The notes: generated by a model from the sequence alone, not told the origin. 64,000 nt of DNA from Thermoprotei archaeon (GCA_003649205.1 QMRC01000004.1:32001-96000); one strand, 5' to 3'. Shown: positions 22,159 to 59,611, counted from the stretch's first letter. Numbers and translations are program-made.

Positions 22159-23197
22159 CTGTGAGGTACGGTAGTAACTCCGTAAGCAGTAACTTAGGTA
22201 GCCCCCTCTTCGATAGCTCAGTATTGAGTACATGATCCTCATTAACGAGTACTTCAGCAAATGGGTGAACTACGTGTACAACCACATTACACCCATTACA
22301 CTCAAAGGGAATACCGTGTAACCTCAGGAACCATGTACATCGCCTAACATCCTCTTCACAACTGAAATCAAGCTTTACCACTCTACTAGGTACCTCGTGT
22401 CTGCAGGTAGAACTCCTCTCCAAACCACGTAACAACAACAACGAGACATGGCTAGCAACCTCAATTACACCACCCCTATCATCACTCCCAATAGGTAACT
22501 CCACAGCAATCGTCGGTACATCCTCCAATGTGAAGTGCGTTAAGTAATCACTGGGGACCTTCACTAAATTAACCTCCTTCCTAAGCTCTATAGGTAGCTC
22601 AAGTACATCACATACATTACCGAGAAAACTCATGACATCGTTAAGGAACTCAACAACCCAATCACGACACCCCACTACACACCGAGCAGTAACACGAACA
22701 GCATCTACATGAGACGGAATCAAGAAGACAAGAGCTAGTGGTCTCAAGTCATTAACCACACGGTGAATGACTTGAGTCTCTAACTGAGTTAGGAACAAAA
22801 AGTCATGAACTAAATCAACACCAGCAGCATTCCTACTACAGTACTGTCTCTCACTAACCACATAACCCTCAGGATTAGCTACAGGAATTACAGCTATCTC
22901 ACCACAACCAAGTAAGTTACCCACAAAAAGAGGATACCTACTGTATACTGGATACCGAAGCAGGTACACCGCATAGAGTAAGGTAGCAACAGATAGGGCA
23001 TCACCAAAAATACCACCAACATAGACGACCTTCTCCCTACCTGAGCCAAGCCTAGCAAGTAAGATCTCCCTACCCAACCTAGTCCTTCCAACAACCTCAA
23101 GTCCATCTGAGAGAAATTGAAGAACATTGCTAACCAACTTCAGAGGTACATCACAGCTAAGGAGAACCCTACGAAGCACAGACCTCGAGAGGCTCAT
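22151..23197 (-). CDS. M14 carboxypeptidase-like protein, zinc motif degenerate
   Basis: VGRTRLGREI, IPVANPEG, RNAAGVDL; HxxE replaced by IFGDA. Confidence 0.6.
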   Translation of the reverse strand: MSLSRSVLRRVLLSCDVPLKLVSNVLQFLSDGLEVVGRTRLGREILLARLGSGREKVVYVGGIFGDALSVATLLYAVYLLRYPVYSRYPLFVGNLLGCGEIAVIPVANPEGYVVSERQYCSRNAAGVDLVHDFLFLTQLETQVIHRVVNDLRPLALVFLIPSHVDAVRVTARCVVGCRDWVVEFLNDVMSFLGNVCDVLELPIELRKEVNLVKVPSDYLTHFTLEDVPTIAVELPIGSDDRGGVIEVASHVSLLLLRGLERSSTCRHEVPSRVVKLDFSCEEDVRRCTWFLRLHGIPFECNGCNVVVHVVHPFAEVLVNEDHVLNTELSKRGLPKLLLTELLPYLTAT

Positions 23198-23246
23198 CAA
23201 ACACCGCCTTCCTCACCTATTCGGACGTGTCACCACCAATCATCGC
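23197..23246 (-). ncRNA. Box C/D sRNA candidate
   Basis: GCGATGA-ttggtggtgacacgt-CCGA-atag-GTGAGGA-aggcggtgt-TTGA; D guide complements 16S ACACCGCC over 8 nt. Confidence 0.5.
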
Positions 23247-23314
23247 CAATATATGGGGTGTACGATCCCCCTAAAATAGACACTGCACAATTAAGAGCGA
23301 AAACCTTAAATAAA

Positions 23315-23333
23315 TACCCCCCATAGGGGGGTA
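23315..23333. promoter_or_regulatory. Perfect palindrome TACCCCCC-ATA-GGGGGGTA just downstream of TATA box
   Basis: Follows AAAACCTTAAATAAA BRE/TATA, upstream of speD. Confidence 0.5.
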
Positions 23334-23362
23334 CGACAAGAATCCCGTCTCCTTGGGGAGGG

Positions 23363-23773
23363 ATGGCGGGGAAAGCTAAGATCAAAACTCATGTTCGAAC
23401 AGCAGCAAAAGTAGTTGGAAAGCACGTATACGGAAATCTATATGGTTGCAACCCCCTTCTCCTATCCGATGAAGAGTACCTGAAGAAGGTTGTTGTAGAG
23501 GCTGCAGTCATCGGGAACATGACTCTATTGAATGTAATCTCGTGGAAGTTCGGTGGTGGCGGAGGAGTCAGCGTAGTAGCTATAGTTGCTGAGAGCCACA
23601 TATCAATACACACCTGGCCAGAGTACTCATACGCTACAGTCGACGTATATACTTGCGGCGAGAAGTGCGATCCGGAAAGAGCCTTCCACTACATAGTTAG
23701 CTGCCTTCGACCAAAGAAATACACGTATCACTTCGTAGATAGGTCATTGAAACCTGAAGATGAAGAGTATTGA
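23363..23773 (+). CDS. speD: Pyruvoyl-dependent SAM (or arginine) decarboxylase proenzyme
   Basis: GKHVYGNLY, AESHISIHTWPE, DVYTCG. Confidence 0.88.
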   Translation: MAGKAKIKTHVRTAAKVVGKHVYGNLYGCNPLLLSDEEYLKKVVVEAAVIGNMTLLNVISWKFGGGGGVSVVAIVAESHISIHTWPEYSYATVDVYTCGEKCDPERAFHYIVSCLRPKKYTYHFVDRSLKPEDEEY

Positions 23774-23825
23774 CTTATAACCTATAACCTAACTACTTAG
23801 TATTTTTCCCCTCCTCACCTACTCA

Positions 23826-23874
23826 TCAGCATATGGGACTCACATCACCTCTCAGTGGATAGGCGCATCATCAC
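23826..23874 (-). ncRNA. Box C/D sRNA
   Basis: GTGATGA-tgcgcctatcca-CTGA-gag-GTGATGT-gagtcccatatg-CTGA; two 12-nt guides. Confidence 0.85.
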
Positions 23875-23999
23875 TAATACACACCAGAGGGGTAGTACCT
23901 AAATGCGTTCCTAATGTACTTAGGAGTAGCATCTCTTAGCAGTGATGTAGCCACTTAGTAGCGTCCACACGACCTATTATCTCACCTACTATGTTGCCA

Positions 24000-25411: not shown

Positions 25412-25488
<77 letters not shown>

Positions 25489-25555
25489 TTAACCTCGACA
25501 TTCACTCTCTATGTTGATTTTTTAAAGGTTTACTTCATAATTCATGTAACCTCTC

Positions 25556-26197: not shown

Positions 26198-26233
26198 GTG
26201 TAGTGATTCACGAGTGGTTTAGGTTTAAGTATT

Positions 26234-26284
26234 GTGATGATTCGGCGCTTAGCTGATTTCAGTGATGTGTCAATTCCGAGCTGA
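26234..26284 (+). ncRNA. Box C/D sRNA
   Basis: GTGATGA-ttcggcgcttag-CTGA-tttca-GTGATGT-gtcaattccgag-CTGA. Confidence 0.85.
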
Positions 26285-27870: not shown

Positions 27871-27994
27871 CTCATGTTTTAAACTCCGTATTCTGTTAGG
27901 TACCTAATTCTGTTAGTTACCTGTCCAAGTAAATAAAGTTGGGTCATGTTTCATTGAGTGAGTACTCGATCACTACGTACCTACATCTACGTAC

Positions 27995-29764: not shown

Positions 29765-29812
29765 TCAGCCGGTGTTGGCCTCTTCATCAATCGTTCGTGA
29801 GACAGTCATCAT
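29765..29812 (-). ncRNA. Box C/D sRNA, 23S peptidyl-transferase-region guide
   Basis: ATGATGA-ctgtctcacga-ACGA-TTGATGA-agaggccaacaccgg-CTGA; D' guide complements universal UCGUGAGACAG. Confidence 0.85.
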
Positions 29813-31562: not shown

Positions 31563-31611
31563 ATGATGTAGGAGGTGATCTCGGATAGGTGAAGAGGATA
31601 GCAGATGCTGA
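31563..31611 (+). ncRNA. Box C/D sRNA with guide complementary to the 16S 3' tail
   Basis: ATGATGT-aggaggtgatct-CGGA-tag-GTGAAGA-ggatagcagatg-CTGA. Confidence 0.7.
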
Positions 31612-31630: not shown

Positions 31631-31680
31631 ATGAGGAGGAGGCCAGTGGGCTGATCTCTGATGAACGGCAAAAGCTCTGA
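31631..31680 (+). ncRNA. Box C/D sRNA
   Basis: ATGAGGA-ggaggccagtggg-CTGA-tct-CTGATGA-acggcaaaagct-CTGA. Confidence 0.78.
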
Positions 31681-31799
31681 GCTATGATCTCTCTCGAGTA
31701 TACCTGGATGAAATACATGGGATATTCAGATAGGTGAAGAAGCTCGGGCAATATCAATTGATTAATTCCGAGCTATTTTCGAGGAAAAATAAGGGGTTT

Positions 31800-32826: not shown

Positions 32827-32874
32827 TCAGCTAACAGCTCACTCATCACCAATCAAGGGCCGTAGGTTCATCAC
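32827..32874 (-). ncRNA. Box C/D sRNA, 23S GTPase-centre guide
   Basis: GTGATGA-acctacggccc-TTGA-ttg-GTGATGA-gtgagctgttag-CTGA; D guide complements UAACAGCUCAC. Confidence 0.88.
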
Positions 32875-33456: not shown

Positions 33457-33502
33457 TCAGAGCCTGGAGTCATCCTCACTCAATCGGTCTCAAGTTCGTC
33501 AA
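33457..33502 (-). ncRNA. Box C/D sRNA
   Basis: TTGACGA-acttgagaccga-TTGA-GTGAGGA-tgactccaggct-CTGA, starting right after the NfeD stop. Confidence 0.65.
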
Positions 33503-35435: not shown

Positions 35436-35445
35436 ACGAATCCCC

Positions 35446-36929: not shown

Positions 36930-37000
36930 CGCGCCCGACGGAGATCCCCTCATCGCTGGGAACAATGCCCCTCTCAGGGATCTCTACTTGGTGTCTAGCT
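36921..37000 (-). ncRNA. K-turn hairpin with ACA box, H/ACA-like sRNA candidate
   Basis: gagatccC-TGA...GATGA-ggggatctc stem with ACA 14 nt after the stem base; lower stem weak. Confidence 0.5.
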
Positions 37001-38622: not shown

Positions 38623-38676
38623 GTGATGAGAAGAGGGTCAACAGATGAGGTAAGTGAAGAGAACTTACCAGACTGA
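38623..38676 (+). ncRNA. Box C/D sRNA, 23S helix 69/71 double guide
   Basis: GTGATGA-gaagagggtcaa-CAGA-tgaggtaa-GTGAAGA-gaacttaccaga-CTGA; complements UGACCCUCUU and GGUAAGUUC. Confidence 0.88.
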
Positions 38677-43118: not shown

Positions 43119-43169
43119 GTGATGAGCTAGGGGTGTAACCGATCTGGTGATGTGAGGTAGTCTCGCTGA
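43119..43169 (+). ncRNA. Box C/D sRNA
   Basis: GTGATGA-gctaggggtgtaa-CCGA-tctg-GTGATGT-gaggtagtctcg-CTGA. Confidence 0.82.
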
Positions 43170-45241: not shown

Positions 45242-45352
45242 TACGACAGGTAACTAGCTAAATCAATTCCTCCAATCCTCACCTAACTCGAGCTACTTGG
45301 TACTGAAGTAAATGAAGAGTAAGAGCTAAAGTCACTGATTGAGTTTTACTAG

Positions 45353-47546: not shown

Positions 47547-47598
47547 GTACACTCACGTAGCAAGGATTTTTTCTCACTCCTCTAAGTGAGTGTCTTGA

Positions 47599-47653
47599 GT
47601 GATGAAGGTGCCGCAGCCACCGAGCTTGTGAGGAGCAGGCGAGGGCTAACTGA
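47599..47653 (+). ncRNA. Box C/D sRNA
   Basis: GTGATGA-aggtgccgcagcca-CCGA-gctt-GTGAGGA-gcaggcgagggctaa-CTGA. Confidence 0.8.
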
Positions 47654-47698
47654 CAACTATAGCAACTCAACAGCTTGGAAGCAGCTTGCTTCACTCAA

Positions 47699-47748
47699 TC
47701 AGCAACGCGCACCGATCATCACTACTCAAGTGAGAGGAGGTTCATCAT
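47699..47748 (-). ncRNA. Box C/D sRNA, 16S guide
   Basis: ATGATGA-acctcctctcac-TTGA-gta-GTGATGA-tcggtgcgcgttg-CTGA; D' guide complements archaeal 16S GAGAGGAGGU. Confidence 0.88.
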
Positions 47749-47766
47749 CTTGAGAATACGCTACGG

Positions 47767-48198
47767 TTACACTATCATCGTCGCTATGTTAGCTATCTTA
47801 GGCCACCTCTCAGCAGCTTCCTTAGCTACAGGTCCAAAGATCTCCGATGCCTTTGGATCACCTTCCGGTGTACAGAGGACAACAGCATTATCCTCAAAGC
47901 AAATCCATTCACCTGTTGGTCTTCTATAGGGCTTTCTCTGCCTAATCACTATGGCTCTCATGATTTGCTTACGTAGCTCAGGTTTACCCTCTCTAACGGA
48001 TACAACAACCATATCACCAACACTTGCTCCAGGTATTCTCCTCCAAACAGTCTTAGCTCCCTGACCAACAACACCTATAACTCTAACTAACCTAGCACCA
48101 CTGTTATCGGCTACAGGAACTAATGAGTTTATGAATATTGCTGGTGGTATGTGGAACTTGTAACCTACACCGGTAACCTTAGCTCCTCTCTTAGCCAT
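47767..48198 (-). CDS. rpl14: 50S ribosomal protein uL14
   Basis: [29 protein letters not shown]. Confidence 0.96.
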
Positions 48199-48218
48199 AG
48201 TGATCGCCTAGGTAGGTG

Positions 48219-48809
48219 CTACATTGTGTCTAAATAAGATTTTCCTTCATCACTCTTACTTTGTAAATTGTCTCTCCGTAGCTTCCTTAACACGTTATTA
48301 ATTTCTTCACCATTCATGAGTAGTAGGTCGGGGTTCACTAGGTAGCAGAATAGTACCTCATAAGGTCTAGGAGGTACGTGAATTAGTACTCCAGTTCTGA
48401 ACCACTGCTCAATAACCTTAATGAAGCACCTACCCGCTTGGTATACAAGTCTAGAGTATAGGTAAGGTCTACAGCTCCTATAGTCGAGATCTGTTATTTC
48501 CTTGAGGAAGGTATTCACAACTTTACTCTTTGGAAAGTACTTCAACAACTTTCTACATAGCTTTGCTAGTGTTGACGTATCAGCACTTACATGATTATTA
48601 ACTTCCTCACCTAGGGTAATTAGTACAGCACTCAACCCTACACATGCTAAGCTCAGAACGTTTAAGTACTCAATGCTGTTTTTCAGGAATCTATATAGCG
48701 AATCTAACTCAATTCTCCATACCTTATCCCTGTGTTGCTCTAGGTACTCAATACCTCTCTTTAGGTGTCTTTCATTGATTTTAGCTATGTACACCAATTC
48801 AGTGATCAA
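48219..48809 (-). CDS. Hypothetical protein
   Basis: 196-aa ORF with GAGGGTGA RBS, co-oriented with rpl14. Confidence 0.55.
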   Translation of the reverse strand: MITELVYIAKINERHLKRGIEYLEQHRDKVWRIELDSLYRFLKNSIEYLNVLSLACVGLSAVLITLGEEVNNHVSADTSTLAKLCRKLLKYFPKSKVVNTFLKEITDLDYRSCRPYLYSRLVYQAGRCFIKVIEQWFRTGVLIHVPPRPYEVLFCYLVNPDLLLMNGEEINNVLRKLRRDNLQSKSDEGKSYLDTM

Positions 48810-48840
48810 GAAATCACCCTCAGGTACCTATTTGAGGTGA

Positions 48841-48892
48841 TCAGTAAGGGGGTCAAAGGTCATCGAATTCCCTCGGGGAGTTATGTCATCAT
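48841..48892 (-). ncRNA. Box C/D sRNA, possible tRNA D-loop guide
   Basis: ATGATGA-cataactcc-CCGA-gggaat-TCGATGA-cctttgaccccctta-CTGA. Confidence 0.7.
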
Positions 48893-48945
48893 CGTGTATG
48901 TGCTACATGGAAATACCTAAAAACTCTACTCTCGAGACTGAGTTT

Positions 48946-48994
48946 GTGATGAGGCTAGACCATTCAGAGAGGTGAAGAAAAAGGCCGCCGCTGA
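48946..48994 (+). ncRNA. Box C/D sRNA, probable tRNA guide
   Basis: GTGATGA-ggctagaccatt-CAGA-gag-GTGAAGA-aaaaggccgccg-CTGA; complements tRNA-like UGGUCUAGCC. Confidence 0.85.
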
Positions 48995-49002
48995 ATTAGT
49001 TA

Positions 49003-50148
49003 ATGCAGGTAATTTCTATGACATGCATTAGGAAGCTGATTGGTGGTTCCATCCTCTATGGTGATGACCTACCTACTGGGTGTAGGTTATGTCTTAGAGG
49101 TAGGAAGTCTGTCATCTTCATCACGGGTCTCTGTAATGTTAAGTGCTTTTACTGTCCTATTGACGAGTCTAGGTTTGGTGTTGATGTAGTTGCTGTGAAT
49201 GATGTTCCTGTTCCTCTCGGTAATGAAGATGAGATGTTGGAGTGCATTGCTCGTGAATGTGAGGTGTGTTGTAGTTATGGTGTTGGTATTACTGGTGGTG
49301 AGCCATCTCTAGTAATTGATCGAGTTGCTAAGGTAGTTACGTACCTGAGAAATTGCTTTGGTGAAGATTTTCACGTACATATATACGTTCACGCAAGAGG
49401 AATTGATTCTGAAGTTGCGAAGCACCTAGTTACTCTATGTGATGAGGTTAGAGTGCACTCACTCTCTTGTGATGAGATTCGTAGAGCATTGAGATATCTT
49501 GAAGTTGTGCGTAAGGCTGAAGCCTCGCGAGCAGTGTTAGGGATTGAGGTCCCTGTGATCCCAGGTCAGGTTCAGCATTATGTTGACCTGGTACGTGTAG
49601 CTCGTGAGTGTGGTGCCTCGTTCGTTAACCTAAATGAGTTAGAGATGACTGGTGTTGGTGAGCTTAAGCTTCGTGAGCTAGGTTACAGGATTAGAGCTAA
49701 CTCACTTACAGCTGTGTTAGGGAGCTATGAGACAGGTGTCAGAGTTATTGAGGAGATTTCCCGTAGAGGTCTCGACATTACCGTACATCTGTGTACAGCT
49801 GAAGCTAAGGATAGTGTTCAGTTGAGGACTAGACTCTACATGAAGTCCACGGTAACTACGATGCCCCATGAAGAGGTTACGGATGAAGGTACTATCAGGA
49901 AGGTATTGATTTCCTCCAACCCTAATCATATTGACGAGTTGATTGAAGTAATTACGAAATTCATACCGAGCAACCTCATTGTACGAGTTAATGAGCAAAC
50001 ACTTGAGGTACCTGTATTCGTGCTCAAGATACCTCAGCTTAGTAAGGTACTCAAGGAGAGAGCTAGCTACCTAGCTATTGTCGAAGAAGTTATTCGTGGT
50101 AGTGAACGAGTTGTAGTGAGTAGGCTCAGCTTAGGGGGTTCTCAGTAA
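49003..50148 (+). CDS. Archaeal radical SAM protein (COG2108-like)
   Basis: GCRLCLRGRK, CNVKCFYC, GITGGEP, NLNELE. Confidence 0.85.
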   Translation: MQVISMTCIRKLIGGSILYGDDLPTGCRLCLRGRKSVIFITGLCNVKCFYCPIDESRFGVDVVAVNDVPVPLGNEDEMLECIARECEVCCSYGVGITGGEPSLVIDRVAKVVTYLRNCFGEDFHVHIYVHARGIDSEVAKHLVTLCDEVRVHSLSCDEIRRALRYLEVVRKAEASRAVLGIEVPVIPGQVQHYVDLVRVARECGASFVNLNELEMTGVGELKLRELGYRIRANSLTAVLGSYETGVRVIEEISRRGLDITVHLCTAEAKDSVQLRTRLYMKSTVTTMPHEEVTDEGTIRKVLISSNPNHIDELIEVITKFIPSNLIVRVNEQTLEVPVFVLKIPQLSKVLKERASYLAIVEEVIRGSERVVVSRLSLGGSQ

Positions 50149-50178
50149 GAGAGTTTAAGGTGTCTACCTTGTGATGTA

Positions 50179-51429
50179 TTGGGGATTACTGTGATCAGAA
50201 GGAGTAAGGTAGCACTTGAACCATATCAGTTAGAGTCTGGTCCTGTTCCTGAAGAGATATACCACGGAATTCACCTTCCCGAAACATTTCACGAGAAGGA
50301 GTATCGACTTGTCGATCTCTCATACATACTCTATGCTGCACAAGGTGTTAGAGAGAAGAGATGGGGGATAAGATTTCGAACAGTTCCCTCTGCTGGTGCT
50401 ACCTATCCACTGGAGGTGTACGTGGTTGCTCGAGCTGTTGAGGGTTTAAGTCCTGGTATCTACCACTACGTTGCTGAAAGTGTGACAGAGCACTATCTAG
50501 AGCGAGTATCTGACCTCGATGCGGTACCCGAGCTAGAAAAACTCATGGGTAAGGTACCCTGTTCACTGATCATTTCATCCATATATGAGAGGACTACAGC
50601 TAGGTACGGTCATAGGGGGATTAGATACGTTCACCTAGAGGTTGGTCATTTACTACAGAATGTGTGGCTTATGGCTACCCTCCTTATGTCTGACATAGAG
50701 CCTATCCCTATTCCACAGGAACTAGAGGAGAGATTGAGGAATATTGTGAGTGGGAGACCTCATATGCTAATTCACGTAGGTTATGGTAGTGGTGTTAGGA
50801 GTATCGCTCCTAAAGATGAGTTTACAGAAATCCCAATTCTTAAAGAGGTTGAAGTTCTTGAGTTTGAAAGGAGTTCCCTACCTCTTGCTATCGCTGTTAG
50901 AGAGCGGAGATCCGTTAGAGAGTTCAGTAAGGGTGAAGTGCTGAAGTTTAGTTCGTTATGTAGGTTGTTAGTTGCTGGTTCAGGTTACGGTAAGTATGGT
51001 TACAGGACATATATACCGCTGAACTTCAGTGAGTATACTTGCGAACTATTTGTAGTTGTGAGGTCTGTTAATGGTATTGAGCCTGGTGTCTACCGCTACA
51101 ATCCTCTACGCGGTGTACTGGAGCTAGTTAGGAAAGGAGCTGTCTATGCTGAGTTAGCTGATGCGTGTCTAGGTCAGGAATGGGTTGAGAATGCTCAAGT
51201 AAACTTCGTGATCCTCGCACGTAAGACATCACTTAAGAGAGTAGGTACGTACGTAGCAGAGATTGAGGCTGGTCAAATGTGTCAGAACATTTGTCTACAA
51301 GCTACAGCACTTGAGCTAGGTAGTGTACCCATCGGTGCATTCTATGATTTTGAGGTACTGAGAGTTCTAGGTGTACCGCTTGAGGTGTATGAACCTCTGT
51401 ACGTGTGCTCGGTAGGTGTTAGGTGGTGA
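50179..51429 (+). CDS. SagB-type nitroreductase-fold protein, two domains
   Basis: RTVPSAGATYP, RYGHRGIRY, RRSVREF, IGAFYD. Confidence 0.85.
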   Translation: MGITVIRRSKVALEPYQLESGPVPEEIYHGIHLPETFHEKEYRLVDLSYILYAAQGVREKRWGIRFRTVPSAGATYPLEVYVVARAVEGLSPGIYHYVAESVTEHYLERVSDLDAVPELEKLMGKVPCSLIISSIYERTTARYGHRGIRYVHLEVGHLLQNVWLMATLLMSDIEPIPIPQELEERLRNIVSGRPHMLIHVGYGSGVRSIAPKDEFTEIPILKEVEVLEFERSSLPLAIAVRERRSVREFSKGEVLKFSSLCRLLVAGSGYGKYGYRTYIPLNFSEYTCELFVVVRSVNGIEPGVYRYNPLRGVLELVRKGAVYAELADACLGQEWVENAQVNFVILARKTSLKRVGTYVAEIEAGQMCQNICLQATALELGSVPIGAFYDFEVLRVLGVPLEVYEPLYVCSVGVRW

Positions 51430-51432
51430 GAT

Positions 51433-51756
51433 GTGGTGAAGAGATCTAATGAGCTAGATGTTGTAGATAAGGTACTTAGCAAGGCTGAGCGCCTAATCAA
51501 TGAGGGTAGAGTAGTTAGAGTTAGCGATCGCTTATTCTATGTCATTGGTGATCACATGAAGTACTTCGTCCGTGTAGGACCTGAAGGACCTCACTGTATG
51601 TGTGAGGGCTTTAAGAAGAGAGGTTTTTGTTCGCACTCTATAGCTGTTATGATGGTTCTACTAGGTAGGTATGATGTTAAGGTACTTGAGGAGAAGGTTA
51701 GGGAGAGGTTACTGAGAGATAGGCAATTATTAGGTAGGGGCAGGAAAATGAGGTAA
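51433..51756 (+). CDS. SWIM zinc-finger protein
   Basis: CMC...CSH. Confidence 0.8.
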   Translation: MVKRSNELDVVDKVLSKAERLINEGRVVRVSDRLFYVIGDHMKYFVRVGPEGPHCMCEGFKKRGFCSHSIAVMMVLLGRYDVKVLEEKVRERLLRDRQLLGRGRKMR

Positions 51757-51765
51757 CTTAGAGTA

Positions 51766-52482
51766 TTGGTGAAAAATCAAATTACTCTCCACTACTCACT
51801 TGTGAGCACGGTGAACTACTTGGATGTCAAGAGTACTCTAGTGTTTCTCGTTAAGTCCTATGGATTACTAGGTATATTCCTCATATCATTTATTGGTAAC
51901 GCTATACCATACATCACAATACCCTACCTAGTCGTAGTAATGACGTACGTTGGTACGGTTAAGGTAAATCCTCTAGTAGTTGGTATTATTAGTGGTATTG
52001 GTGCAGCCTTGGGAAAGGTTGTAGTTTACCTTCTAGGTAGATTAGCTGGTAAGTTTGTCTCAGAGGAGAGGAAGGAGCATTTAATTAAGTTCGTGCTAAA
52101 GTTCGAGAAGGAAATTTTCCTAGCTATCCTAATTCTTGCTGCCACACCATCCCCAGACGATGTAATTTACATACCTGTTGGAGCATCTAGGTACCCACTT
52201 TTGAAGTTCTTTATAGCGTGTGCACTGGGTAAGGTTGTGATATCATCATTAACAGCGTCTTTCGGCTGGTTCCTTGGATCAGGTCTTGAACTACTTGGTA
52301 TACCTTGGTACCTACAGTTTATAGCACTACTAGCTCTTTCGCTCTACCTACTATACCTAGCTCTAGCCATTAAGTGGGACCTAGTTCTGAGTGCCTTCGA
52401 AGAGAACTGGATTAAGGGCTTACTCACACTACTCAAGGAGGTAAGGTCTAAAGCTCTTCCAAGACCTAGAGTTAGTAGGTGA
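51766..52482 (+). CDS. DedA/VTT-domain membrane protein
   Basis: GAALGKVVVYLLGR, ATPSPDD. Confidence 0.85.
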   Translation: MVKNQITLHYSLVSTVNYLDVKSTLVFLVKSYGLLGIFLISFIGNAIPYITIPYLVVVMTYVGTVKVNPLVVGIISGIGAALGKVVVYLLGRLAGKFVSEERKEHLIKFVLKFEKEIFLAILILAATPSPDDVIYIPVGASRYPLLKFFIACALGKVVISSLTASFGWFLGSGLELLGIPWYLQFIALLALSLYLLYLALAIKWDLVLSAFEENWIKGLLTLLKEVRSKALPRPRVSR

Positions 52483-52533
52483 TGAGGGCACTCGGGACTG
52501 AGATGTGTTGTGATGTATTTTCCGCATTGCTGA
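52479..52533 (+). ncRNA. Box C/D sRNA, 16S double guide; box C overlaps the upstream stop codon
   Basis: GTGATGA-gggcactcggga-CTGA-gatgtgtt-GTGATGT-attttccgcattg-CTGA; complements CCCGAGUGCC and CAAUGCGG. Confidence 0.85.
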
Positions 52534-52581
52534 TGATGTACTAGGAAAACTTATTACTAATACATCGATTCCCTACTCTGG

Positions 52582-52634
52582 ATGAAGAAGACCTCGGATT
52601 CTGAATTAGTGATGATGCTTCCCCACGTTTCAGA
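52582..52634 (+). ncRNA. Box C/D sRNA
   Basis: ATGAAGA-agacctcggatt-CTGA-atta-GTGATGA-tgcttccccacgttt-CAGA. Confidence 0.75.
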
Positions 52635-52637
52635 TAT

Positions 52638-52684
52638 TCAGCTAGTAGCGGCTTCCTCACCTATCAGAACCCCTCCTTCATCAC
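52638..52684 (-). ncRNA. Box C/D sRNA
   Basis: GTGATGA-aggaggggtt-CTGA-tag-GTGAGGA-agccgctactag-CTGA. Confidence 0.85.
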
Positions 52685-52699
52685 CAGGTTAATAGAGAT

Positions 52700-53761
52700 G
52701 TGAGAGTTTATATACCTCAGATTTTAAGCTTGTATCCGTTAGTCATGAGAGGTAGATCAGTTAGACAGAGGAGAGTAATTCATCCAGTAATTGCCTTACT
52801 CGAGGAGTACGGTAGGGGTATAGAGGATCTACTCTACGCTAATTTACCGAAGGACTTGATCACCGCGAAGGAAGGTGTTAGGTATAGGTACAGTCTATTG
52901 AGTACAAGTGAATCCCTACGTAAGTTCATTGATGAGTACCGTAGTGTTGCTCATGTTGATGAGCTATATAGGTATGTACTCTTCATGGCAACTACCTTGT
53001 CTGCTGTTGGTAGAGGTCACGTAGTTATGGAGCCTCTTTACAGATCAATTAGGGATCTGTACGATAGTGGTGAGTTTAGGGATGTAGTGACTGGTTCTGT
53101 ACGTGAGTTCACTAAAGTTAGGGATGTAGCTGAGGAGTTCATTAGGATGTATGGTGAGTACTCTGGTCGTTCACTATCAGTATCGGTTGAGGAGCTAACT
53201 AAGGTTTGGATAAGGACTGCACGGAGGATTGAGTGGATCTGTAGGGTTAAAGCTGATGACTTAATCTCGTACCTAGCGCGTTTCACATCAGTTCGTAGAT
53301 TCATGGTGGAATTGATGCGAGATTTCGTCTACTATGTGGTGAAGGGAGGTAAGGTATCAAAGAGTATAAGATTACTGACTAAGTGGTCTTGTCACCCGAA
53401 GATAACTGCTCCACTAGCTATCGAAATATGTAGAAGAGGGAAGTACGTTGAGTACGTTGCTCCAATAGACATGTACACAGCTACCGTTGTCTTTAGGTCA
53501 GGTCTCTTCACGTTAATTAGCGGTGAGAAGGTCAATGTATTACTAGCTAAGTTGGAGAGAGCTAAGGAAAGAGGTAGTACTGTCATCTTAAAACTGAGTA
53601 AGTGGGATGATGTTGTTCAGAAGCTTCTCCACATAGGTCAAGACCCTATAGCTCTTGAAAATGCTCTATTTAACATAGGGTACAGATTCTGTCGTACATC
53701 TACGTGCGATAAGTGTCCTCTAGCTAACTACTGTAGGAACTACCCGGTAAAGGTGAAATAG
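52700..53761 (+). CDS. Hypothetical protein with C-terminal EndoIII-like Fe-S loop
   Basis: APIDMY...VFRSG and FCRTSTCDKCPLANYC. Confidence 0.65.
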   Translation: MRVYIPQILSLYPLVMRGRSVRQRRVIHPVIALLEEYGRGIEDLLYANLPKDLITAKEGVRYRYSLLSTSESLRKFIDEYRSVAHVDELYRYVLFMATTLSAVGRGHVVMEPLYRSIRDLYDSGEFRDVVTGSVREFTKVRDVAEEFIRMYGEYSGRSLSVSVEELTKVWIRTARRIEWICRVKADDLISYLARFTSVRRFMVELMRDFVYYVVKGGKVSKSIRLLTKWSCHPKITAPLAIEICRRGKYVEYVAPIDMYTATVVFRSGLFTLISGEKVNVLLAKLERAKERGSTVILKLSKWDDVVQKLLHIGQDPIALENALFNIGYRFCRTSTCDKCPLANYCRNYPVKVK

Positions 53762-53791
53762 CTTTAAATCAGTTAAGTAAGCAACATAGTG

Positions 53792-53840
53792 GTGATGAGC
53801 TCTTGCCCGTCTGAGCTATGACGATAAACTGCGGGACTGA
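53792..53840 (+). ncRNA. Box C/D sRNA with own promoter
   Basis: GTGATGA-gctcttgcccgt-CTGA-gct-ATGACGA-taaactgcggga-CTGA; CTTTAAAT at 53762. Confidence 0.88.
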
Positions 53841-53912
53841 GCTCAGTGCACATCACCAATGCGAGTAATTTAAGGTGGAATTAATCAATAACAAATAGAT
53901 GTCTTCTCTGGG

Positions 53913-53963
53913 ATGAGGAATCTTCGGCGGCGATTGAGAGGTGACGAGTGAGGGAGTCACCGA
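53913..53963 (+). ncRNA. Box C/D sRNA
   Basis: ATGAGGA-atcttcggcggcga-TTGA-gag-GTGACGA-gtgagggagtca-CCGA. Confidence 0.68.
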
Positions 53964-54568
53964 CCGCAATCTACTACCTTCTCTAACCTATGAACCTTTA
54001 GACCGCACCCTGTACACATGAGCATCCTCGTGTAGGCTAGTGAGTCCAGTATTGCCGAGTACACAACTCTCTCACGAACTAACCATAGGGTTGATGAGCA
54101 TCGAGGACAGGAACCCATTTGTCTCAGTAATCTAGGTCTTACCCCCACGATCTCTACGAAGTAGTCCCTAATCAACCTCCTACACACAACACCCTCTAGA
54201 TTAGCTAGTGTAGTCGGTAGTGAGTGTACGTGGAGTACGGAAGGTATTATGTCAGGTAACCTCCATAGTTCGCCACTATCTTTCAACCACCTCACAACTC
54301 TAATGTAGATAGTTGTCGAATAGGGTGCTAGAAGTAGAGTAGGTTCCTTAGGTCTAATCACACCATTGAGTACAAACCGCAGGAATCTATAGGGTGCTTC
54401 CTTGTATTCAGGTACAGGGTACACCCACACCTTAAATTTCAGTGAACCCCATGTACACGTGAGAAGACCATACTCACCCTCAAGTTCAACAATACCATCT
54501 ACCCAATACTTCAAATACTGCTTAACAGCCCTAACCCAATTCCTCAGCTCAGTACCCAAAGAAGTCAC
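53957..54568 (-). CDS. Hypothetical protein with C-terminal zinc ribbon
   Basis: CPRC...CTGC. Confidence 0.6.
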   Translation of the reverse strand: MTSLGTELRNWVRAVKQYLKYWVDGIVELEGEYGLLTCTWGSLKFKVWVYPVPEYKEAPYRFLRFVLNGVIRPKEPTLLLAPYSTTIYIRVVRWLKDSGELWRLPDIIPSVLHVHSLPTTLANLEGVVCRRLIRDYFVEIVGVRPRLLRQMGSCPRCSSTLWLVRERVVYSAILDSLAYTRMLMCTGCGLKVHRLEKVVDCGR

Positions 54569-54611
54569 CTAACGAAGTACTTATTAGGGGAGACACAGTA
54601 CGGTATCTACG

Positions 54612-54665
54612 GTGATGAAGCACCTCGGCAATGTGATGAGTTGTGATTAGGCGGGCAGCAACTGA
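54612..54665 (+). ncRNA. Box C/D sRNA
   Basis: GTGATGA-agcacctcggcaat-GTGA-tgagtt-GTGATTA-ggcgggcagcaa-CTGA. Confidence 0.78.
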
Positions 54666-54697
54666 CTCTCTCACTTCAATAGCTCTCCGATGAGGCT

Positions 54698-54749
54698 GTG
54701 ATGAGTGTTGGGGCCGAGACAGATTAGTGAAGAGACCCCCAATCGCTGA
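54698..54749 (+). ncRNA. Box C/D sRNA
   Basis: GTGATGA-gtgttggggccgaga-CAGA-tta-GTGAAGA-gacccccaatcg-CTGA. Confidence 0.85.
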
Positions 54750-54754
54750 GTTCA

Positions 54755-55408
54755 TCACACCTTAACTACCTCCCTAATGGCTTCTGGAGGTACGTAATCA
54801 GTAACATATATGTGATCCGTAGCTCTGTACACTCTATGACCTAACCTCCTCAGCAACTCAACATCTATAACCAGAACTGCAGGTCTACCCTTCCTCTTAC
54901 CAACTACAACAGCGTCCTCAAATCTATCGGTTAGGTGAACCCACATCCTCTTCATAGGCTTTAGCCCCTCCTTCAGTATCCTAGGTACATTCTCAACAGC
55001 TGTACCGTGGTACAGTATTTTCACTTCCCGATCCTCAATATAGCTTATCTTGACCCTGATGCTATGTCCGTACCTAGCTCTTATCTTGTTACCAATAATC
55101 TCGAACCTACCCTTGGGATCTAGCTGAGCTACAGCAATTACGTGCTCTTTAGTAACCCACTGGTAGAGATGTCTATTACGCCACTTCTTACGAATAGCTT
55201 CAACCAGTTCATCAATATCAACAAACCCTTCATCATCTAATTTCAACCCTACAACCTGAGGAAAGTGCCTGAGTAATCCTGACATGAGTTTACTCAACAT
55301 CTCACGTCTACTACCCGATAAGAATATCCTAGTAGGTTTCCCACAGTGTACCTCGTCTTCAGTAAAGGCACCACAGACAGTACACCTACGTATATCTGGC
55401 ATCACCAT
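54755..55408 (-). CDS. kptA: RNA 2'-phosphotransferase (KptA/Tpt1)
   Basis: LLRH, KGRFE, RARYGHS, LYHGT, MKRMWVHL. Confidence 0.93.
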   Translation of the reverse strand: MVMPDIRRCTVCGAFTEDEVHCGKPTRIFLSGSRREMLSKLMSGLLRHFPQVVGLKLDDEGFVDIDELVEAIRKKWRNRHLYQWVTKEHVIAVAQLDPKGRFEIIGNKIRARYGHSIRVKISYIEDREVKILYHGTAVENVPRILKEGLKPMKRMWVHLTDRFEDAVVVGKRKGRPAVLVIDVELLRRLGHRVYRATDHIYVTDYVPPEAIREVVKV

Positions 55409-55432
55409 GATCTCACCAATAGCGCTATAGCC

Positions 55433-55484
55433 TCAGTCTGCCCAAGCTCGATCACTGATCTCACGCTGGCGTAAGGCACATCAT
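55433..55484 (-). ncRNA. Box C/D sRNA overlapping the DHH gene stop
   Basis: ATGATGT-gccttacgccagc-GTGA-gatca-GTGATCG-agcttgggcaga-CTGA. Confidence 0.65.
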
Positions 55485-56704
55485 CGGCTAAGTAGGGCAT
55501 CATCTACCCTACTGATGAACTCCTCCTCACGTCCACGCAAGATAACACCAGAAGCAGCAAATGCATGACCATCACCGACACCACCAAACTCAGAGCATAA
55601 CCTAATTACCTCTGATAGAGGTTTAGCTTTACCCTCACTAACTAACTTCTCGAGTAGATTAGTAACTCGGAACGACACCTTAGTGTAGTCGTGCTCTAAC
55701 TCACCAAGTCCCGGTACTTCTCTCCTCATGTACATCATACCTGCGATGTACTTATCCTCCTTAATCAAGTCCTTCCTTCTATACCTAAGGTAAGACGTGA
55801 AAAGACCAATAACCTTAACACCAAGACCATCAAAGAGATTACCTACATGAAACCATTGAACAGATCTAAGTACCCTAAGCTCCTTCTCAACAAGTTCCTG
55901 TGCTTCTCTAAACTTAGTGTCTCTTAGCTTCTGCAGCTTCTCAACCATATCGAGAGCAAGATCGTGAAGGCCATGGATGCAGATGTCAATAGCCATCTCT
56001 GGTCCTCGCTGGTAGTAGCCAATAGCTGCTAAGGTAGTTAACTTAGCTGAGAGCGACCTGTAGCTATCTCTATATCCGTGAAAATCAATGAAGTAATCCT
56101 CCCTACCTCTGTACTTCCTAACAACAACGGTCCTCCTATTGAAGCACTCACGCAAGATCTCTCTACCCAAAGCACTCAACCAAAGGTTACCAGTTATCTC
56201 AGCTGCACCGACTACAGGTAGGTACGAGAACGCAGAGACTTCACTACTTATAGCACGAGCTAGGTAGTACGTAACTATGGAAGCAGAAGCATCCTTCTCA
56301 CCAGAGAACTCAAATAGCTCTGGATTTAGGTGAAGAACGTGACCAAGCTCAGCAACTCTACACTCTTCAGGAAAATCGTGGTGATCAACTACAACAACTA
56401 AGTTATCTCGACCAATTCTCCTAGAAACCTCGTGGATCTTCACTAAGTGAGGTGAACCAAGATCAACATACATGACAAAACCCTTACTCACGCTATGTAC
56501 CTTCTCAATAATTTCAGGAAGGACCTTCTCAACACAAATAGTCTTAACCCTAAACCCTCTTGTCTCAAGTGCTAACTTCATTAACGCAGCCGATACGACA
56601 CCATCTGCATCATCGTGGTGAATTAACAAGCAATCACTAACACCTACCTTAAGTATTGTTGAAGCTATCTTCTCGACATGCTCCTTGAAACGCTCAAGAG
56701 ACAA
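55481..56704 (-). CDS. DHH-family phosphoesterase (RecJ-like)
   Basis: HDDADG, VDLGS, VDHH, NPELF, GDGHAFAAS. Confidence 0.88.
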   Translation of the reverse strand: MSLERFKEHVEKIASTILKVGVSDCLLIHHDDADGVVSAALMKLALETRGFRVKTICVEKVLPEIIEKVHSVSKGFVMYVDLGSPHLVKIHEVSRRIGRDNLVVVVDHHDFPEECRVAELGHVLHLNPELFEFSGEKDASASIVTYYLARAISSEVSAFSYLPVVGAAEITGNLWLSALGREILRECFNRRTVVVRKYRGREDYFIDFHGYRDSYRSLSAKLTTLAAIGYYQRGPEMAIDICIHGLHDLALDMVEKLQKLRDTKFREAQELVEKELRVLRSVQWFHVGNLFDGLGVKVIGLFTSYLRYRRKDLIKEDKYIAGMMYMRREVPGLGELEHDYTKVSFRVTNLLEKLVSEGKAKPLSEVIRLCSEFGGVGDGHAFAASGVILRGREEEFISRVDDALLSR

Positions 56705-56807
56705 AATATCTACACCTCACAGTACTTACTAGAGCTCTACAACTAAGGCTCCCTAAGTAGTTAATTAATTACTCTGTCATCGTAAACATGAACTTAGGTG
56801 TTTTCTC

Positions 56808-57215
56808 ATGAAGTGTGAGATCTGTGGTGAGAGAGAAGCTACGTACGTATGTTCTAGGTGTAGGAGGTTAGTGTGTAGTCAGTGCTTCAATGAGATGAAT
56901 TACCTCTGTAATCACTGTAGTAGGTACCTCGATACCCTTAGACAGGACTACGTGGTGTACCTAAGTCATGTGCAGAAGCTATGTAATGAACTCAAAGTAC
57001 GTATGTCAACTCCACAGTGTAGGCTATGTCCGATAGCTCTTGAGCTAGCTCTAACATTGCTGAAGGGTGTTCGTGATGTGAAGAGAGCCTCAGAAGTACA
57101 TAGGTTTGATGATGTGACTAAGATAGCTGATACTGTGGAGAAGGAATTGACTACAATAGCTATGTATTTTCTGGTTTCTCGCAACCTAAGGAGCCTAAGG
57201 GAGAGAGTTGAGTGA
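56808..57215 (+). CDS. Zinc-finger protein
   Basis: CEIC..CSRC..CSQC..CNHC. Confidence 0.75.
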   Translation: MKCEICGEREATYVCSRCRRLVCSQCFNEMNYLCNHCSRYLDTLRQDYVVYLSHVQKLCNELKVRMSTPQCRLCPIALELALTLLKGVRDVKRASEVHRFDDVTKIADTVEKELTTIAMYFLVSRNLRSLRERVE

Positions 57216-57259
57216 AAGTGTCACCCCCTTAAAAACACATTAAGGTACTTTACTAGTGG

Positions 57260-57607
57260 GTGTTGTCTCTGCTAGCTAGAGAACTACTTGAAGAGCTTAG
57301 TGTCGAGGTACTTGATGTAGAGCTTGAGGAAACCCGTGGTTACTTAGCTATAACGTACCTACTCGAGCTATCGGAGGGTGTTGCAGTACCTATTTCTGAA
57401 TTTCACACAACTGACTTCTGGGTGTTGATTGTTCCACTGAATTTACTTGGTTTAGTAGCATCGTACTTAGTGCTTAGATCGAGATTGAGCGAGATCAGTG
57501 ATTTCTCCTTAATTGCTATTGTTGTGAGTGGTCTCTATGTGGAGTTCATCTTCGTTCGCTGTAGTGGTTTTGCTGTGTATCCAGCGAAATCTTTACTATC
57601 TCTCTAA
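57260..57607 (+). CDS. Hypothetical protein
   Basis: ORF fills the gap after a TATA-like CCTTAAAA; no motif recognised. Confidence 0.45.
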   Translation: MLSLLARELLEELSVEVLDVELEETRGYLAITYLLELSEGVAVPISEFHTTDFWVLIVPLNLLGLVASYLVLRSRLSEISDFSLIAIVVSGLYVEFIFVRCSGFAVYPAKSLLSL

Positions 57608-57626
57608 ACCTTAGTTATGCACTGTT

Positions 57627-58358
57627 ATGGGTATTAGGGTTCTCGTAACTGATGTTGATGGTGTTTTAACGGATTCGAAGGGAAGACTTGATTTGAGAGC
57701 TATTTCTCTTCTCCGTACTCTCGAGGAGAAAGGTATCTCGGTAATCCTTGCATCTGGTGCTTCTCTTCCAACTCTTCTCTCTCTACGTAGGTACCTAGGT
57801 ACTTCAGGTCCTGTAATTGCTGAGAACGGTGGAGTCATCTACATTAACGGTATGGTTGAGGTATTAGCTAAGAGAGATCCCGTTCTTGAGGCATGGAGTG
57901 AATTACGTAATGTACTACGTGACCTAGTTATCGAGAGTGCGACTTCTTTTGCTCGGTTAACAGATGTTGTGTTTAGACCTAGATCTAAGTCCTTAGTCGA
58001 TTATGTATTACTTAGGTCGAGGAGTGTCCTCGAGAAGTACCCAGATCTCGAGCTGGTTTACTCAGGTTTCTCCTTTCACCTCAAACCAAGGTCTACTAGT
58101 AAGTACAGGGCGCTTCTCCTCGTGTTGGAGAGACTTGGTCTACACCTAGATGATGTTCTTGCAGTTGGTGATAGCGAAGTGGATTTAGAAATGCTAAGGT
58201 ATAGTCCGTACAGTGGTGTGCCTGCTCATGCACCGGAATGCGTTAAGAGCGTTGCTAAGTACGTATCTCAGCATCCCTACGCTATGGGTTTCATAGATGT
58301 GGTGCTTCACTACCTCGGTAAGGAACTAGCTCCTTCTTCACCTACATTCTCACCATAG
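57627..58358 (+). CDS. HAD IIB phosphatase (phosphoglycolate phosphatase-like)
   Basis: DVDGVLT, LASG, AENGG, SK, GDSEVD. Confidence 0.88.
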   Translation: MGIRVLVTDVDGVLTDSKGRLDLRAISLLRTLEEKGISVILASGASLPTLLSLRRYLGTSGPVIAENGGVIYINGMVEVLAKRDPVLEAWSELRNVLRDLVIESATSFARLTDVVFRPRSKSLVDYVLLRSRSVLEKYPDLELVYSGFSFHLKPRSTSKYRALLLVLERLGLHLDDVLAVGDSEVDLEMLRYSPYSGVPAHAPECVKSVAKYVSQHPYAMGFIDVVLHYLGKELAPSSPTFSP

Positions 58359-58816
58359 TACCTCCCTCTATAGAGCTTATGTGGTTTCTCAACTAGCTTA
58401 ATCAACACTAACTGAGCTACTCTAGCACCTACCTCAATCTCGATACCATTCGGATTCAGTACCAGTAGCATCGCTTCTCCTCTACCTACGTAACCTGGAT
58501 CCCAAACAGCTAAGTTGATAGAAGCACCCATACGAAGTAAACTAGACCTCGGAAAGGCAATACCAACACAGTCCTCAGGGATAGACACAACCTCTCTAAA
58601 CCTAATCTTGTACACTCCTGGCTCAAGTACGTAGATACCTCCTCTAGGCTCAACCTCCTCACAATGAGGTAGCTCTACACCACTCCTCCGAATAGCTCCT
58701 CTACCACAAAATACAAAGACTCTCTCGAGAGTTAAGTCAATACCAGCAGGCTGTATCTGCTCCACAGATACTGACTCGATAAACTTAGACACCAAGATCC
58801 CAGGTAGAGCACACAT
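58310..58816 (-). CDS. Trimeric dUTPase/dCTP deaminase family
   Basis: QPAGIDL, PRSSLLR, WDPGYVG, RVAQL. Confidence 0.9.
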   Translation of the reverse strand: MCALPGILVSKFIESVSVEQIQPAGIDLTLERVFVFCGRGAIRRSGVELPHCEEVEPRGGIYVLEPGVYKIRFREVVSIPEDCVGIAFPRSSLLRMGASINLAVWDPGYVGRGEAMLLVLNPNGIEIEVGARVAQLVLIKLVEKPHKLYRGRYYGENVGEEGASSLPR

Positions 58817-58817
58817 A

Positions 58818-59552
58818 CTAATCCACCTTCTCTACAACCACTATCATTCTCCAACACCTACAATCTCTAGATAACCTACACGAAGTATCGTAATCACCAA
58901 AGCACTCAAATACCTTAAATCCGAGTAACTCCAGTATAGTGAGTAATTCCTGTGGAAAGAATACCCTAAGCTTTAGAGTACCAACATCAACCCACGAACT
59001 ACCATACCTAACCCTTAACCTCCAGACCTCAAGTTGATTCACGTAATCGACATCAAGAAGCTCAAGATCATAGCGATCACATACAGATTCTGGAATTGTG
59101 TAGGTATCTAGGAAGTAACCCCTAGGATTCGCTACATCGATAATGTAGAGACCACCAACCCTCAACACCCTCCAAACCTCCCTTAAATGGGACACAACAT
59201 CGTACCTAGAGACTAAGTGTCTAAAGGTATCGAAGAGACAGGTACACACATCAAAAAAGTCCGCCCTAAACGGCAGACACCTCATATCACCACAAATACC
59301 AGAACCAAGAGCCAACCTCCCTCTATTCCTCGCATAGTACAGCATATCCCTACTCAAGTCAATACCATAAACCTCATACCCACACCTGGCAAGCTTGTGG
59401 ACATGAGTACAGGTACCACAACCCAAGTCAAGAACTCTACGAACACGAACACCAGCTAGCTCAAAGACATCAATCAAGAACTCTACCTCCCTATCAACAT
59501 CAAGACGTGAAAAAGCAACCTCATACAGTTCAGGTCTAAGGTATATACTCAA
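58818..59552 (-). CDS. Class I SAM-dependent methyltransferase
   Basis: VLDLGCGT, GIDLS, GDMR, LRVGG. Confidence 0.88.
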   Translation of the reverse strand: MSIYLRPELYEVAFSRLDVDREVEFLIDVFELAGVRVRRVLDLGCGTCTHVHKLARCGYEVYGIDLSRDMLYYARNRGRLALGSGICGDMRCLPFRADFFDVCTCLFDTFRHLVSRYDVVSHLREVWRVLRVGGLYIIDVANPRGYFLDTYTIPESVCDRYDLELLDVDYVNQLEVWRLRVRYGSSWVDVGTLKLRVFFPQELLTILELLGFKVFECFGDYDTSCRLSRDCRCWRMIVVVEKVD

Positions 59553-59563
59553 GGAACTTCACC

Positions 59564-59611
59564 TCAGCTTAGGTCCAGTTCATCATTTCTCAGAAGGCGG
59601 TAGTTCATCAC
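59564..59611 (-). ncRNA. Box C/D sRNA
   Basis: GTGATGA-actaccgcctt-CTGA-gaa-ATGATGA-actggacctaag-CTGA; all four boxes consensus. Confidence 0.92.

Follow-up and report, generated by a model that had tools for sequence, protein, structure and literature searches.

The stretch analysed here, a window of 64,000 nucleotides from a Thermoprotei archaeon (GCA_003649205.1, QMRC01000004.1:32001-96000; G000:C4:32001-96000 in our genome collection), carries between 23 and 60 kb a dense series of short units that are very probably genes for archaeal box C/D guide small RNAs (sRNAs). Each unit consists of a C box, a guide of about 12 nucleotides (nt), a D' box, a short loop, a C' box, a second guide of about 12 nt, and a D box. 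The protein-coding genes of the window are ordinary housekeeping ones, including those for ABC transporters, a pilus/secretion operon, archaeosine TGT, Sua5, ThiI, ribosomal protein L14, Tpt1, and NucS. The C/D sRNA class itself is already known; what is unusual here is the number of these genes and their local density.

Box C/D units in the window

The units were detected with a four-box regular expression that allows at most three box mismatches in total over the four boxes, and with a log-odds scanner trained on the strict matches of the same genome. The regular expression gave 16 matches in the window, all within 23826-59610 and one of them inside an open reading frame (ORF). At 22 bits or more, the scanner gave 21 matches in 23001-60000, three of which lie within ORFs and are doubtful, and none in either 1-23000 or 60001-64000. 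Searches of the window with Rfam models at the gathering score detected no C/D unit, only a tRNA-Ala (25415-25488); E-value mode gave 60 matches, among them sub-threshold ones to C/D sRNA models at 17 distinct loci, which all fall within 23192-59615. Gap-by-gap reading of both strands, combined with conservation in a congener (G001), yielded 24 candidates: 15 strong (at least 27 bits), six moderate (33457, 47600, 52583, 53914, 54613, and 55433, each named by its first position), and three weak (23197, 31708, and 48841). The original prediction, made by a model from the sequence alone, had placed about 23 units of 46-55 nt in this interval; its count, unit size, and coordinates are borne out, with 21 units well supported, and the measured length from box to box is 45-54 nt.

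The prediction that most gaps longer than about 50 nt in this region are occupied is barely true. Among hand-defined gaps of at least 50 nt between 23 and 60 kb, 16 of 27 hold at least one unit, and with automatic, crude gene calls and the 22-bit threshold, 13 of 28 do. The first 23 kb are indeed devoid of units, as predicted, but contain just 1071 non-coding bases, and because there is almost no intergenic DNA there, this emptiness is uninformative. Five additional look-alikes within ORFs of the window (10526, 34502, 35831, 49470, and 57079) are probably spurious: none has an rRNA site, and in the congener, the boxes of 35831 are altered.

Two further elements resemble parts of a unit. A half-unit, CTGA-6 nt-TGAAGA-16 nt-CTGA without an upstream C box, is located at 45302-45338 (+) in a divergent promoter gap, is well conserved, with three changes in 73 nt relative to the congener, and was left out of the unit count. 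Between convergent genes, a 9-bp inverted repeat (36941-36989, -) encloses CUGA...GAUGA, that is, the reverse C/D order with the D-like word first. This repeat is largely kept in the congener and may form a kink-turn-like hairpin or act as a terminator; the folding energy of the hairpin at 36935-36995 is indistinguishable from that of shuffled sequences (z = -0.44).

Evidence for genuine guide RNA genes

Genome-wide, the strict regular expression produced 152 matches, compared with 1, 2, 2, 3, and 3 in five block-wise dinucleotide-preserving shuffles, a difference that excludes chance. The scanner produced 281, 233, 204, and 153 matches at thresholds of at least 20, 22, 24, and 30 bits, respectively, with means of 42, 15.8, 6.5, and 1 in four shuffles, and the four-box pattern read in reverse gave 0 matches against 76. 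Trained on 16 window units, a sequence-only covariance model matched, at E <= 1, 148 of the 150 candidates scored out of 1009 at first look, a lower bound.

The architecture of the matches is uniform. The C box is an exact TGATGA in 143 of the 152 strict matches and is preceded by G or A in 98% of 170 units. The D' box is CTGA in 86 and CAGA in 36 of the 152, and C' is TGANGA in 101. A length of 12 nt is found for guide 1 in 106 matches and for guide 2 in 90, nearly all others being 11-13 nt; the loop between D' and C' is 4 nt in 85, and the modal unit length is 48 nt. The C-to-D box spacing is about 45-55 nt in all 21 strong and moderate window units.

The congener can be aligned over 33,138 window positions at 92.2% identity. 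Across 18 window units, identity is 99.1% in the C box, 100% in the D box, 97.2% in each of the D' and C' boxes, 98.6% in the D' guide, and 96.3% in the D guide, as opposed to 82.9% in the D'-C' loop, 89.5% in other intergenic DNA, and 84.6% at third codon positions. Frozen boxes and guides combined with a drifting loop are the pattern expected of functional guide RNAs.

The A+T content upstream of 170 units peaks at 66-76% between positions -34 and -27 from the C box, as would be expected if part of the genes had a TATA box. Of the window units, about half closely follow a gene on the same strand, several are 4-11 nt 5' of such a gene or overlap its start, and at least five have both neighbours on the opposite strand. 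Such mixed contexts are those reported for other archaea (PMC7994747, section 9).

The genes for Nop5 and fibrillarin are adjacent on contig C1, and L7Ae is encoded as well. By analogy with the established members of this sRNA family, each RNA of about 50 nt would fold into a C/D kink-turn and a C'/D' kink-loop, both bound by L7Ae, onto which a dimer of Nop5 and two fibrillarins would assemble. Every guide would then pair with rRNA or, in a few cases, tRNA, and the target nucleotide facing guide position 5, counted upstream from D or D', would be 2'-O-methylated; RNAs with two guides and nearby targets may also serve as folding chaperones. The components of this scheme that we observe directly are the box architecture, the spacing, the selective conservation, the complementarity to rRNA, and the protein genes.

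Genome-wide repertoire

The source genome comprises 2.07 Mb in 31 contigs, with 43% G+C and an estimated completeness of 93.8%. Contig C3 (291,428 bases, outside the window) is the exact reverse complement of itself over its full length, almost certainly a fold-back assembly artefact that doubles 146 kb and its feature counts. One half of C3 was therefore removed before unique counting, leaving 1.92 Mb. The unique scanner matches number 263, 217, 191, and 143 at 20, 22, 24, and 30 bits or more, with about 15 of the 217 and about 6 of the 191 expected to be false. Non-coding DNA makes up only 15% of the genome, and yet 178 of the 217 lie mostly outside ORFs of at least 100 amino acids. Once the shuffle expectations are subtracted, these counts put the predicted total at about 190-220 C/D sRNA genes, a density of about 1.1 per 10 kb.

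The original prediction reasoned that, if the density seen between 23 and 60 kb held throughout the genome, the repertoire would amount to several hundred. It does not hold: there are 5.7 units per 10 kb in the zone compared to about 1.1 genome-wide, and extrapolation of the zone density would give more than 1000 genes, so that "several hundred" in this sense is unsupported. The estimated total nevertheless exceeds the order of a hundred that the original prediction gave for the richest genomes described, so that its refuting case, a total inside the usual range, did not arise.

Guide targets

Because the organism's own rRNA is missing from the assembly, targets were mapped on the 16S and 23S rRNAs of five or six genomes from other families of the order. 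Perfect 10-mer rRNA complements were found for 85 of 408 guides, compared to 5 in the sense orientation, 15 for reversed guides, and 1-8 for shuffled guides. When at least 10 of 11 matching positions were accepted, 145 of 382 de-duplicated guides had a complement, versus 40-49 for shuffled and 56 for reversed guides, which places at least about 100 of the 382 above background. Both guides fall within 120 nt of each other on one rRNA in 22 of 191 sRNAs, and in none of five controls.

An rRNA site exists for 18 of the 22 intergenic units of the window, in contrast to none of the five in-ORF look-alikes, and three units (32827, 38624, and 52480) carry dual-guide pairs. The statement that several guides are exact complements of conserved rRNA segments is borne out for three: the D' guides of 29765 (23S), 31564, and 47699 (both 16S) match at 11 of 11 positions in four or all of the relatives, and a fourth, 31632, does so in one. 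For tRNAs, matches at 10 of 11 positions or better are not above background (12 versus 2-10), whereas there are three perfect 11-mers versus none.

The guide-rich zone

With gaps of at least 50 nt, 13 of 28 (46%) are occupied in the zone, versus 148 of 950 (16%) genome-wide. The fallback offered by the original prediction, an sRNA-rich chromosomal zone, thus captures the data, with an enrichment of about threefold per gap and five- to sixfold per kb. A second zone lies outside the window, at 250-310 kb of contig C2, where the segment 283118-286157 holds nine high-scoring units in about 3 kb, on both strands, several of them abutting. In these two zones, about half of the intergenic gaps are occupied, and units are otherwise unevenly spread over the genome. 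We regard the window zone as real but moderate.

The zone might have formed as guide genes accumulated, and were kept, in transcriptionally active spacers that separate the short housekeeping genes of a stable region. Under this scenario, some guide genes would have their own promoters and others would be carried on the transcripts of their neighbours.

Weighing the alternatives

Taken together, these observations lead us to propose, tentatively, that this uncultured crenarchaeal genus from vents and sediments has the largest archaeal C/D repertoire yet seen, with about 200 genes (roughly one per 10 kb) and about 400 almost all distinct guides, and guide-rich zones in which about half of the gaps are occupied; we consider this possible but somewhat short of probable. 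Several points weigh against our main interpretation, in which the units are C/D guide sRNA genes, about 190-220 in the genome, with two zones. No unit reaches any Rfam gathering score (0 of 17 loci), so the calls rest on our own models, trained on this genome. Of the 217 matches at 22 bits or more, 39 lie within ORFs, compared to about 16 expected from shuffles; some of these in-ORF matches may be false, and the total could be nearer 180. Targets are seen only through rRNAs of other families, on which four window units and about 60% of all guides have no site at the respective thresholds (10 of 11 or better for the latter). The zone is marginal (P = 0.031) when units are distributed per non-coding base, and the cause that we suggest for it is conjectural.

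The large fraction of guides without an rRNA site, together with the small number of perfect tRNA matches, could mean that a sizeable share of the guides are aimed at neither rRNA nor tRNA, orphan, or nascent, so that the large set reflects turnover rather than heavier rRNA methylation. A precedent exists in Pyrobaculum, for which 28% orphan guides have been reported (PMC7994747). However, on rRNAs from other families, targets in variable regions are invisible, and the guides that lack a site are as conserved in the congener as the rest. We consider this explanation less likely than not.

The zone could also be a by-product of gene layout and sampling, with many short monocistronic genes providing many gaps and the region itself being in no way special. 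The lack of units in the first 23 kb is explained by the paucity of non-coding DNA there, the per-base test is only marginal, and the genome is divided among 31 contigs. But non-coding DNA makes up no more of the zone (4868 of 37,000 bases, 13%) than of the genome; when units are dealt per gap, the probability that any 37 kb holds at least 17 intergenic units is 0.0005; and the second zone, on C2, holds nine units in 3 kb. Layout and sampling are therefore an improbable explanation of the zone.

Recent local amplification, whether by tandem duplication or by a MITE-like mobile element, is very improbable. MITE-like elements have been classed as sRNAs in Pyrobaculum (Lui et al. 2018, PMC6009581), 22 distances between neighbouring units are 100 nt or less compared to 3.8 expected, and units 31564 and 31708 resemble each other in features of their boxes and loops. 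Still, only seven near-identical guide pairs (at least 10 of 11 positions) occur among 434 guides, none of them in the window zone; exact duplicates occur only within the palindromic contig C3; and the units occupy orthologous positions in the congener. MITE-like look-alikes were rejected, as the multiple near-identical copies that would mark them were not observed. As almost all guides are distinct, the zones are not recent amplifications.

Finally, it is hardly credible that the motifs arose by chance from short GA-rich words, even though the boxes are short, TGATGA and CTGA include stop codons and occur frequently where genes end, the shuffles still yield matches at the 20-bit threshold, and the in-ORF candidates lack rRNA sites: the strict and reversed-pattern counts, the conservation of boxes and guides while loops drift, and the antisense-only complementarity to rRNA refute it for the strong units, and chance may account for 23197, 31708, 48841, and the in-ORF matches.

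Comparison with other genomes and known systems

For comparison across the 98 genomes of the class, we counted exact C and D boxes only and subtracted a reversed-pattern control, because the four-box pattern is biased towards the box variants of this genome. The net counts are 252 − 50 for the source genome (including the C3 duplication), 193 − 45 for the congener (1.4 Mb, 71% complete), 127-187 for six genomes of genus g8 (G073-G078), 149 for G034, and at most about 90 for all the others. By this crude same-pattern count, the source genome appears to rank highest in the class, with genus g8 close. Twenty-five genomes of family f3, assumed to be Pyrobaculum-like, gave about 1-49, although 83 (PMC3558965) and 88 (PMC7994747) sRNAs are reported for Pyrobaculum species, which indicates that the sensitivity of the pattern is lineage-dependent and that the ranking is only rough. 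By these counts, net totals of 130-200 C+D matches are reached in three or more lineages of the class, among them this genus, genus g8, and G034, the genomes of the latter two being 1.4-2.1 Mb in size. The true range thus seems wider than the published maxima, obtained from cultured model species, indicate.

The largest published sets are those of Ignicoccus hospitalis (128) and Methanopyrus kandleri (127) (PMC7994747, section 5), likewise hyperthermophiles, whose small genomes hold over 100 C/D sRNA genes. We found no larger repertoire in the literature, per-species supplementary sRNA tables aside. The predicted total here is about 1.5-1.7 times these maxima, but the comparison is not strict, as those counts are based on RNA-seq and the 190-220 on computation.

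In Pyrobaculum and Thermoproteus, which belong to the same order by the grouping of our collection, 110 C/D sRNA families have been described over six species, and dual guides target rRNA sites within 100 nt in 237 of 526 cases (about 45%) (Lui et al. 2018, PMC6009581). These sRNAs resemble those reported here in having four boxes, guides of about 12 nt, and dual guides on nearby rRNA sites, and their genes likewise reside in short spacers or across gene ends. They differ in number, the counts here being about twice as large. The boxes are also far more canonical here, with 76 strict four-box matches compared to 0-6 in nine of the f3 genomes. When an 8-kb piece was compared by BLAST with 49 genomes of the order, no DNA-level sRNA orthology outside the genus was detected among the six candidates scored per genome, and these matches cover essentially only protein-coding segments (L14, Tpt1, and others).

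The Rfam family snoPyro_CD (RF00095) and the sR families of Sulfolobus and Pyrococcus, which give full-length sub-threshold matches at the 17 loci, are defined largely by their guides, and the guides here differ. The units thus fall outside these guide-specific families and yet belong to the same RNA class. Small clusters of archaeal C/D genes are known (Tripp et al. 2017, cited in PMC7994747, section 9), and the present ones are similar in that two or three genes are adjacent, overlap start or stop codons, and in a minority have their own TATA box. Unlike those, the genes described here also cluster on a scale of 30-40 kb (21-24 genes in 37 kb, besides the nine in 3 kb on C2); such clustering was not found described in PMC7994747, supplementary tables aside.

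Individual units

In the following, bits are log-odds scanner scores, rRNA sites are those on the 16S and 23S rRNAs of relatives, and changes are relative to the congener. The first unit, 23197..23247 (-), is weak or degenerate, with a variant C box (CGATGA), D' CCGA, C' TGAGGA, and a variant D box that overlaps the start codon of the gene at 22151-23200. It scores below 12 bits in the scanner and 22.7 bits, sub-threshold, with Rfam sR1. One of its two differences from the congener makes D' the canonical CTGA, a case of box drift between close relatives. The next, 23826..23873 (-), is a strong gene of 12/4/12 geometry (38.3 bits), unchanged in the congener, with a D' guide matching 23S of three relatives at 10 of 11 positions. 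The gene at 26235..26284 (+; 34.7 bits), antisense to both flanking genes, is likewise unchanged and has a 10/11 D' guide match to 23S. At 29765..29811 (-; 30.0 bits), the 3' part of the gene overlaps the annotated start of a KaiC-like gene; its D' guide matches 23S at 11/11 in four of five relatives, and there are two changes.

A single 291-nt gap holds two or three units. The first, 31564..31611 (+; 33.4 bits), is unchanged in the congener, has a TATA-like motif at -33, and carries a D' guide that matches the extreme 3' end of 16S at 11/11 in all four relatives, presumably the anti-Shine-Dalgarno region. It is followed by 31632..31680 (+; 33.8 bits, and also 33.8 bits, sub-threshold, with Rfam sR14), the D' guide of which matches 23S near position 500 at 10-11/11 in three relatives (11/11 in one), and the D guide at 10/11 at position 474 in a fourth. 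The third, 31708..31757 (+), is a weak unit with degenerate D' and D boxes, recognized by eye and missed by the scanner; its body is more conserved in the congener than its 5' flank, and it is possibly decaying or nascent.

Both guides of 32827..32873 (-; 32.8 bits) match 23S of one relative, 40 nt apart. The moderate gene at 33457..33501 (-; 22.5 bits), directly 3' of an NfeD-like gene, has three changes, and no site was found for it on the relatives' rRNAs. The gene at 38624..38676 (+; 36.7 bits) fills a 63-nt gap between convergent genes and has an ortholog in the congener; in four of five relatives, both guides match 23S, at sites separated by 30 nt. At 43120..43169 (+; 30.4 bits), 4 nt 5' of a glycosyltransferase gene, the unit is identical in the congener.

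Unit 47600..47653 (+; 23.2 bits), a moderate gene with unusual spacings and a 10/11 D guide match to 23S, is outside the coverage of the congener fragments. Next to it, 47699..47747 (-; 33.8 bits), 3' of the gene for ribosomal protein L14, is the best C/D match to Rfam (snoPyro_CD, 36.5 bits versus a gathering score of 45), and its D' guide matches 16S at 11/11 in all four relatives. The weak unit 48841..48894 (-; 17.8 bits) has a 10/11 D guide match to 23S in three relatives. For 48947..48994 (+; 39.9 bits; 12/4/12), no rRNA site was found on the relatives' rRNAs, and its D guide matches, at 11 of 12 positions, a tRNA call with an odd 4-base anticodon.

The C box of 52480..52533 (+; 32.8 bits) overlaps the stop codon of the upstream gene; both guides match 16S about 30 nt apart in two relatives, and differences from the congener, including a 5-nt deletion, are confined to the loop. 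The moderate 52583..52634 (+; 21.5 bits; D variant CAGA), with one change, in the loop, and a 10/11 D guide match to 23S, is abutted by the convergent 52638..52683 (-; 35.8 bits), which has one change and TATA-like motifs near -30. The gene at 53793..53840 (+; 39.4 bits; 12/4/12) has an ortholog in the congener and a TATA-like motif at -30. The moderate 53914..53963 (+; 21.4 bits), with the D variant CCGA, overlaps the 3' end of a convergent gene and has a 10/11 D' guide match to 23S in all five relatives.

At 54613..54665 (+; 24.5 bits), a moderate gene antisense to both flanking genes has 23S sites for both guides; compared with the congener, the loop varies and the guides are kept, except that the D guide differs in its first base. 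Downstream, 54699..54749 (+; 27.3 bits; Rfam sR28 30.9 bits, sub-threshold) is identical in the congener. The moderate 55433..55483 (-), with C' TGATCG and a C box overlapping the upstream stop codon, has the full geometry despite scoring 14.7 bits, and a single change in 51 nt. The last gene, 59564..59610 (-; 37.7 bits), has four perfect boxes with no mismatches and one change, in the loop.

Source genome and organism

The genome encodes a reverse gyrase (profile score 1372.8 bits, over the cut-off), from which this crenarchaeon, known only from sediment and vent metagenomes, is probably hyperthermophilic. Neither its small-subunit (SSU) nor its large-subunit rRNA was found in the assembly, and the congener assembly is also without an SSU rRNA. 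In several order-mates in the collection, SSU rRNA matches are split or enlarged to about 2.2 kb, which we take to be typical of the intron-bearing 16S genes of Thermoproteales-type crenarchaea. Queried with 47001-57000, the stretch is contained in six public runs, all of them DNA-type sediment or hydrothermal-vent metagenomes, one of which is probably the source; no RNA run was among them.

ARAGORN predicts 40 tRNAs genome-wide. To a few of them it assigns 4-base anticodons, for example (ggta) and (ttta), which are impossible; the genes concerned probably contain introns or are unusual in another way, and were mis-parsed. Contigs C8 (84 kb), C16 (36 kb, 39.9% G+C), C17, and C20 have 0-1 guide-gene matches, compared to about 2-9 expected, and some of them are lower in G+C; they may be mobile, foreign, or mis-binned DNA. 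In the window, two IF-2B-family genes come after one for the RuBisCO large subunit (15418-18860, -), a set that, we assume, resembles that of the archaeal AMP/ribose-1,5-bisphosphate pathway.

Implications

Box C/D guides are the main route of rRNA decoration and folding in hyperthermophilic archaea, and the accepted role of these sRNAs is unchanged by our findings. If the repertoire proposed here is confirmed and most of the guides are functional, rRNA in this genus would be 2'-O-methylated at several hundred sites, which bears on the scaling limits of the guide system and on the origin of new guides. About 200 canonical guide genes and a sister genome at 92% identity make a clean dataset for studying guide birth, drift, and loss, in which loops can already be seen to drift and D' boxes to flip between CCGA and CTGA while guides remain frozen. 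The zones would, in that case, delimit a chromosome domain that either is specialised for the emergence and retention of guide genes or permits them, and such regional concentration, if confirmed on a closed genome, would add a new feature to archaeal chromosome organisation.

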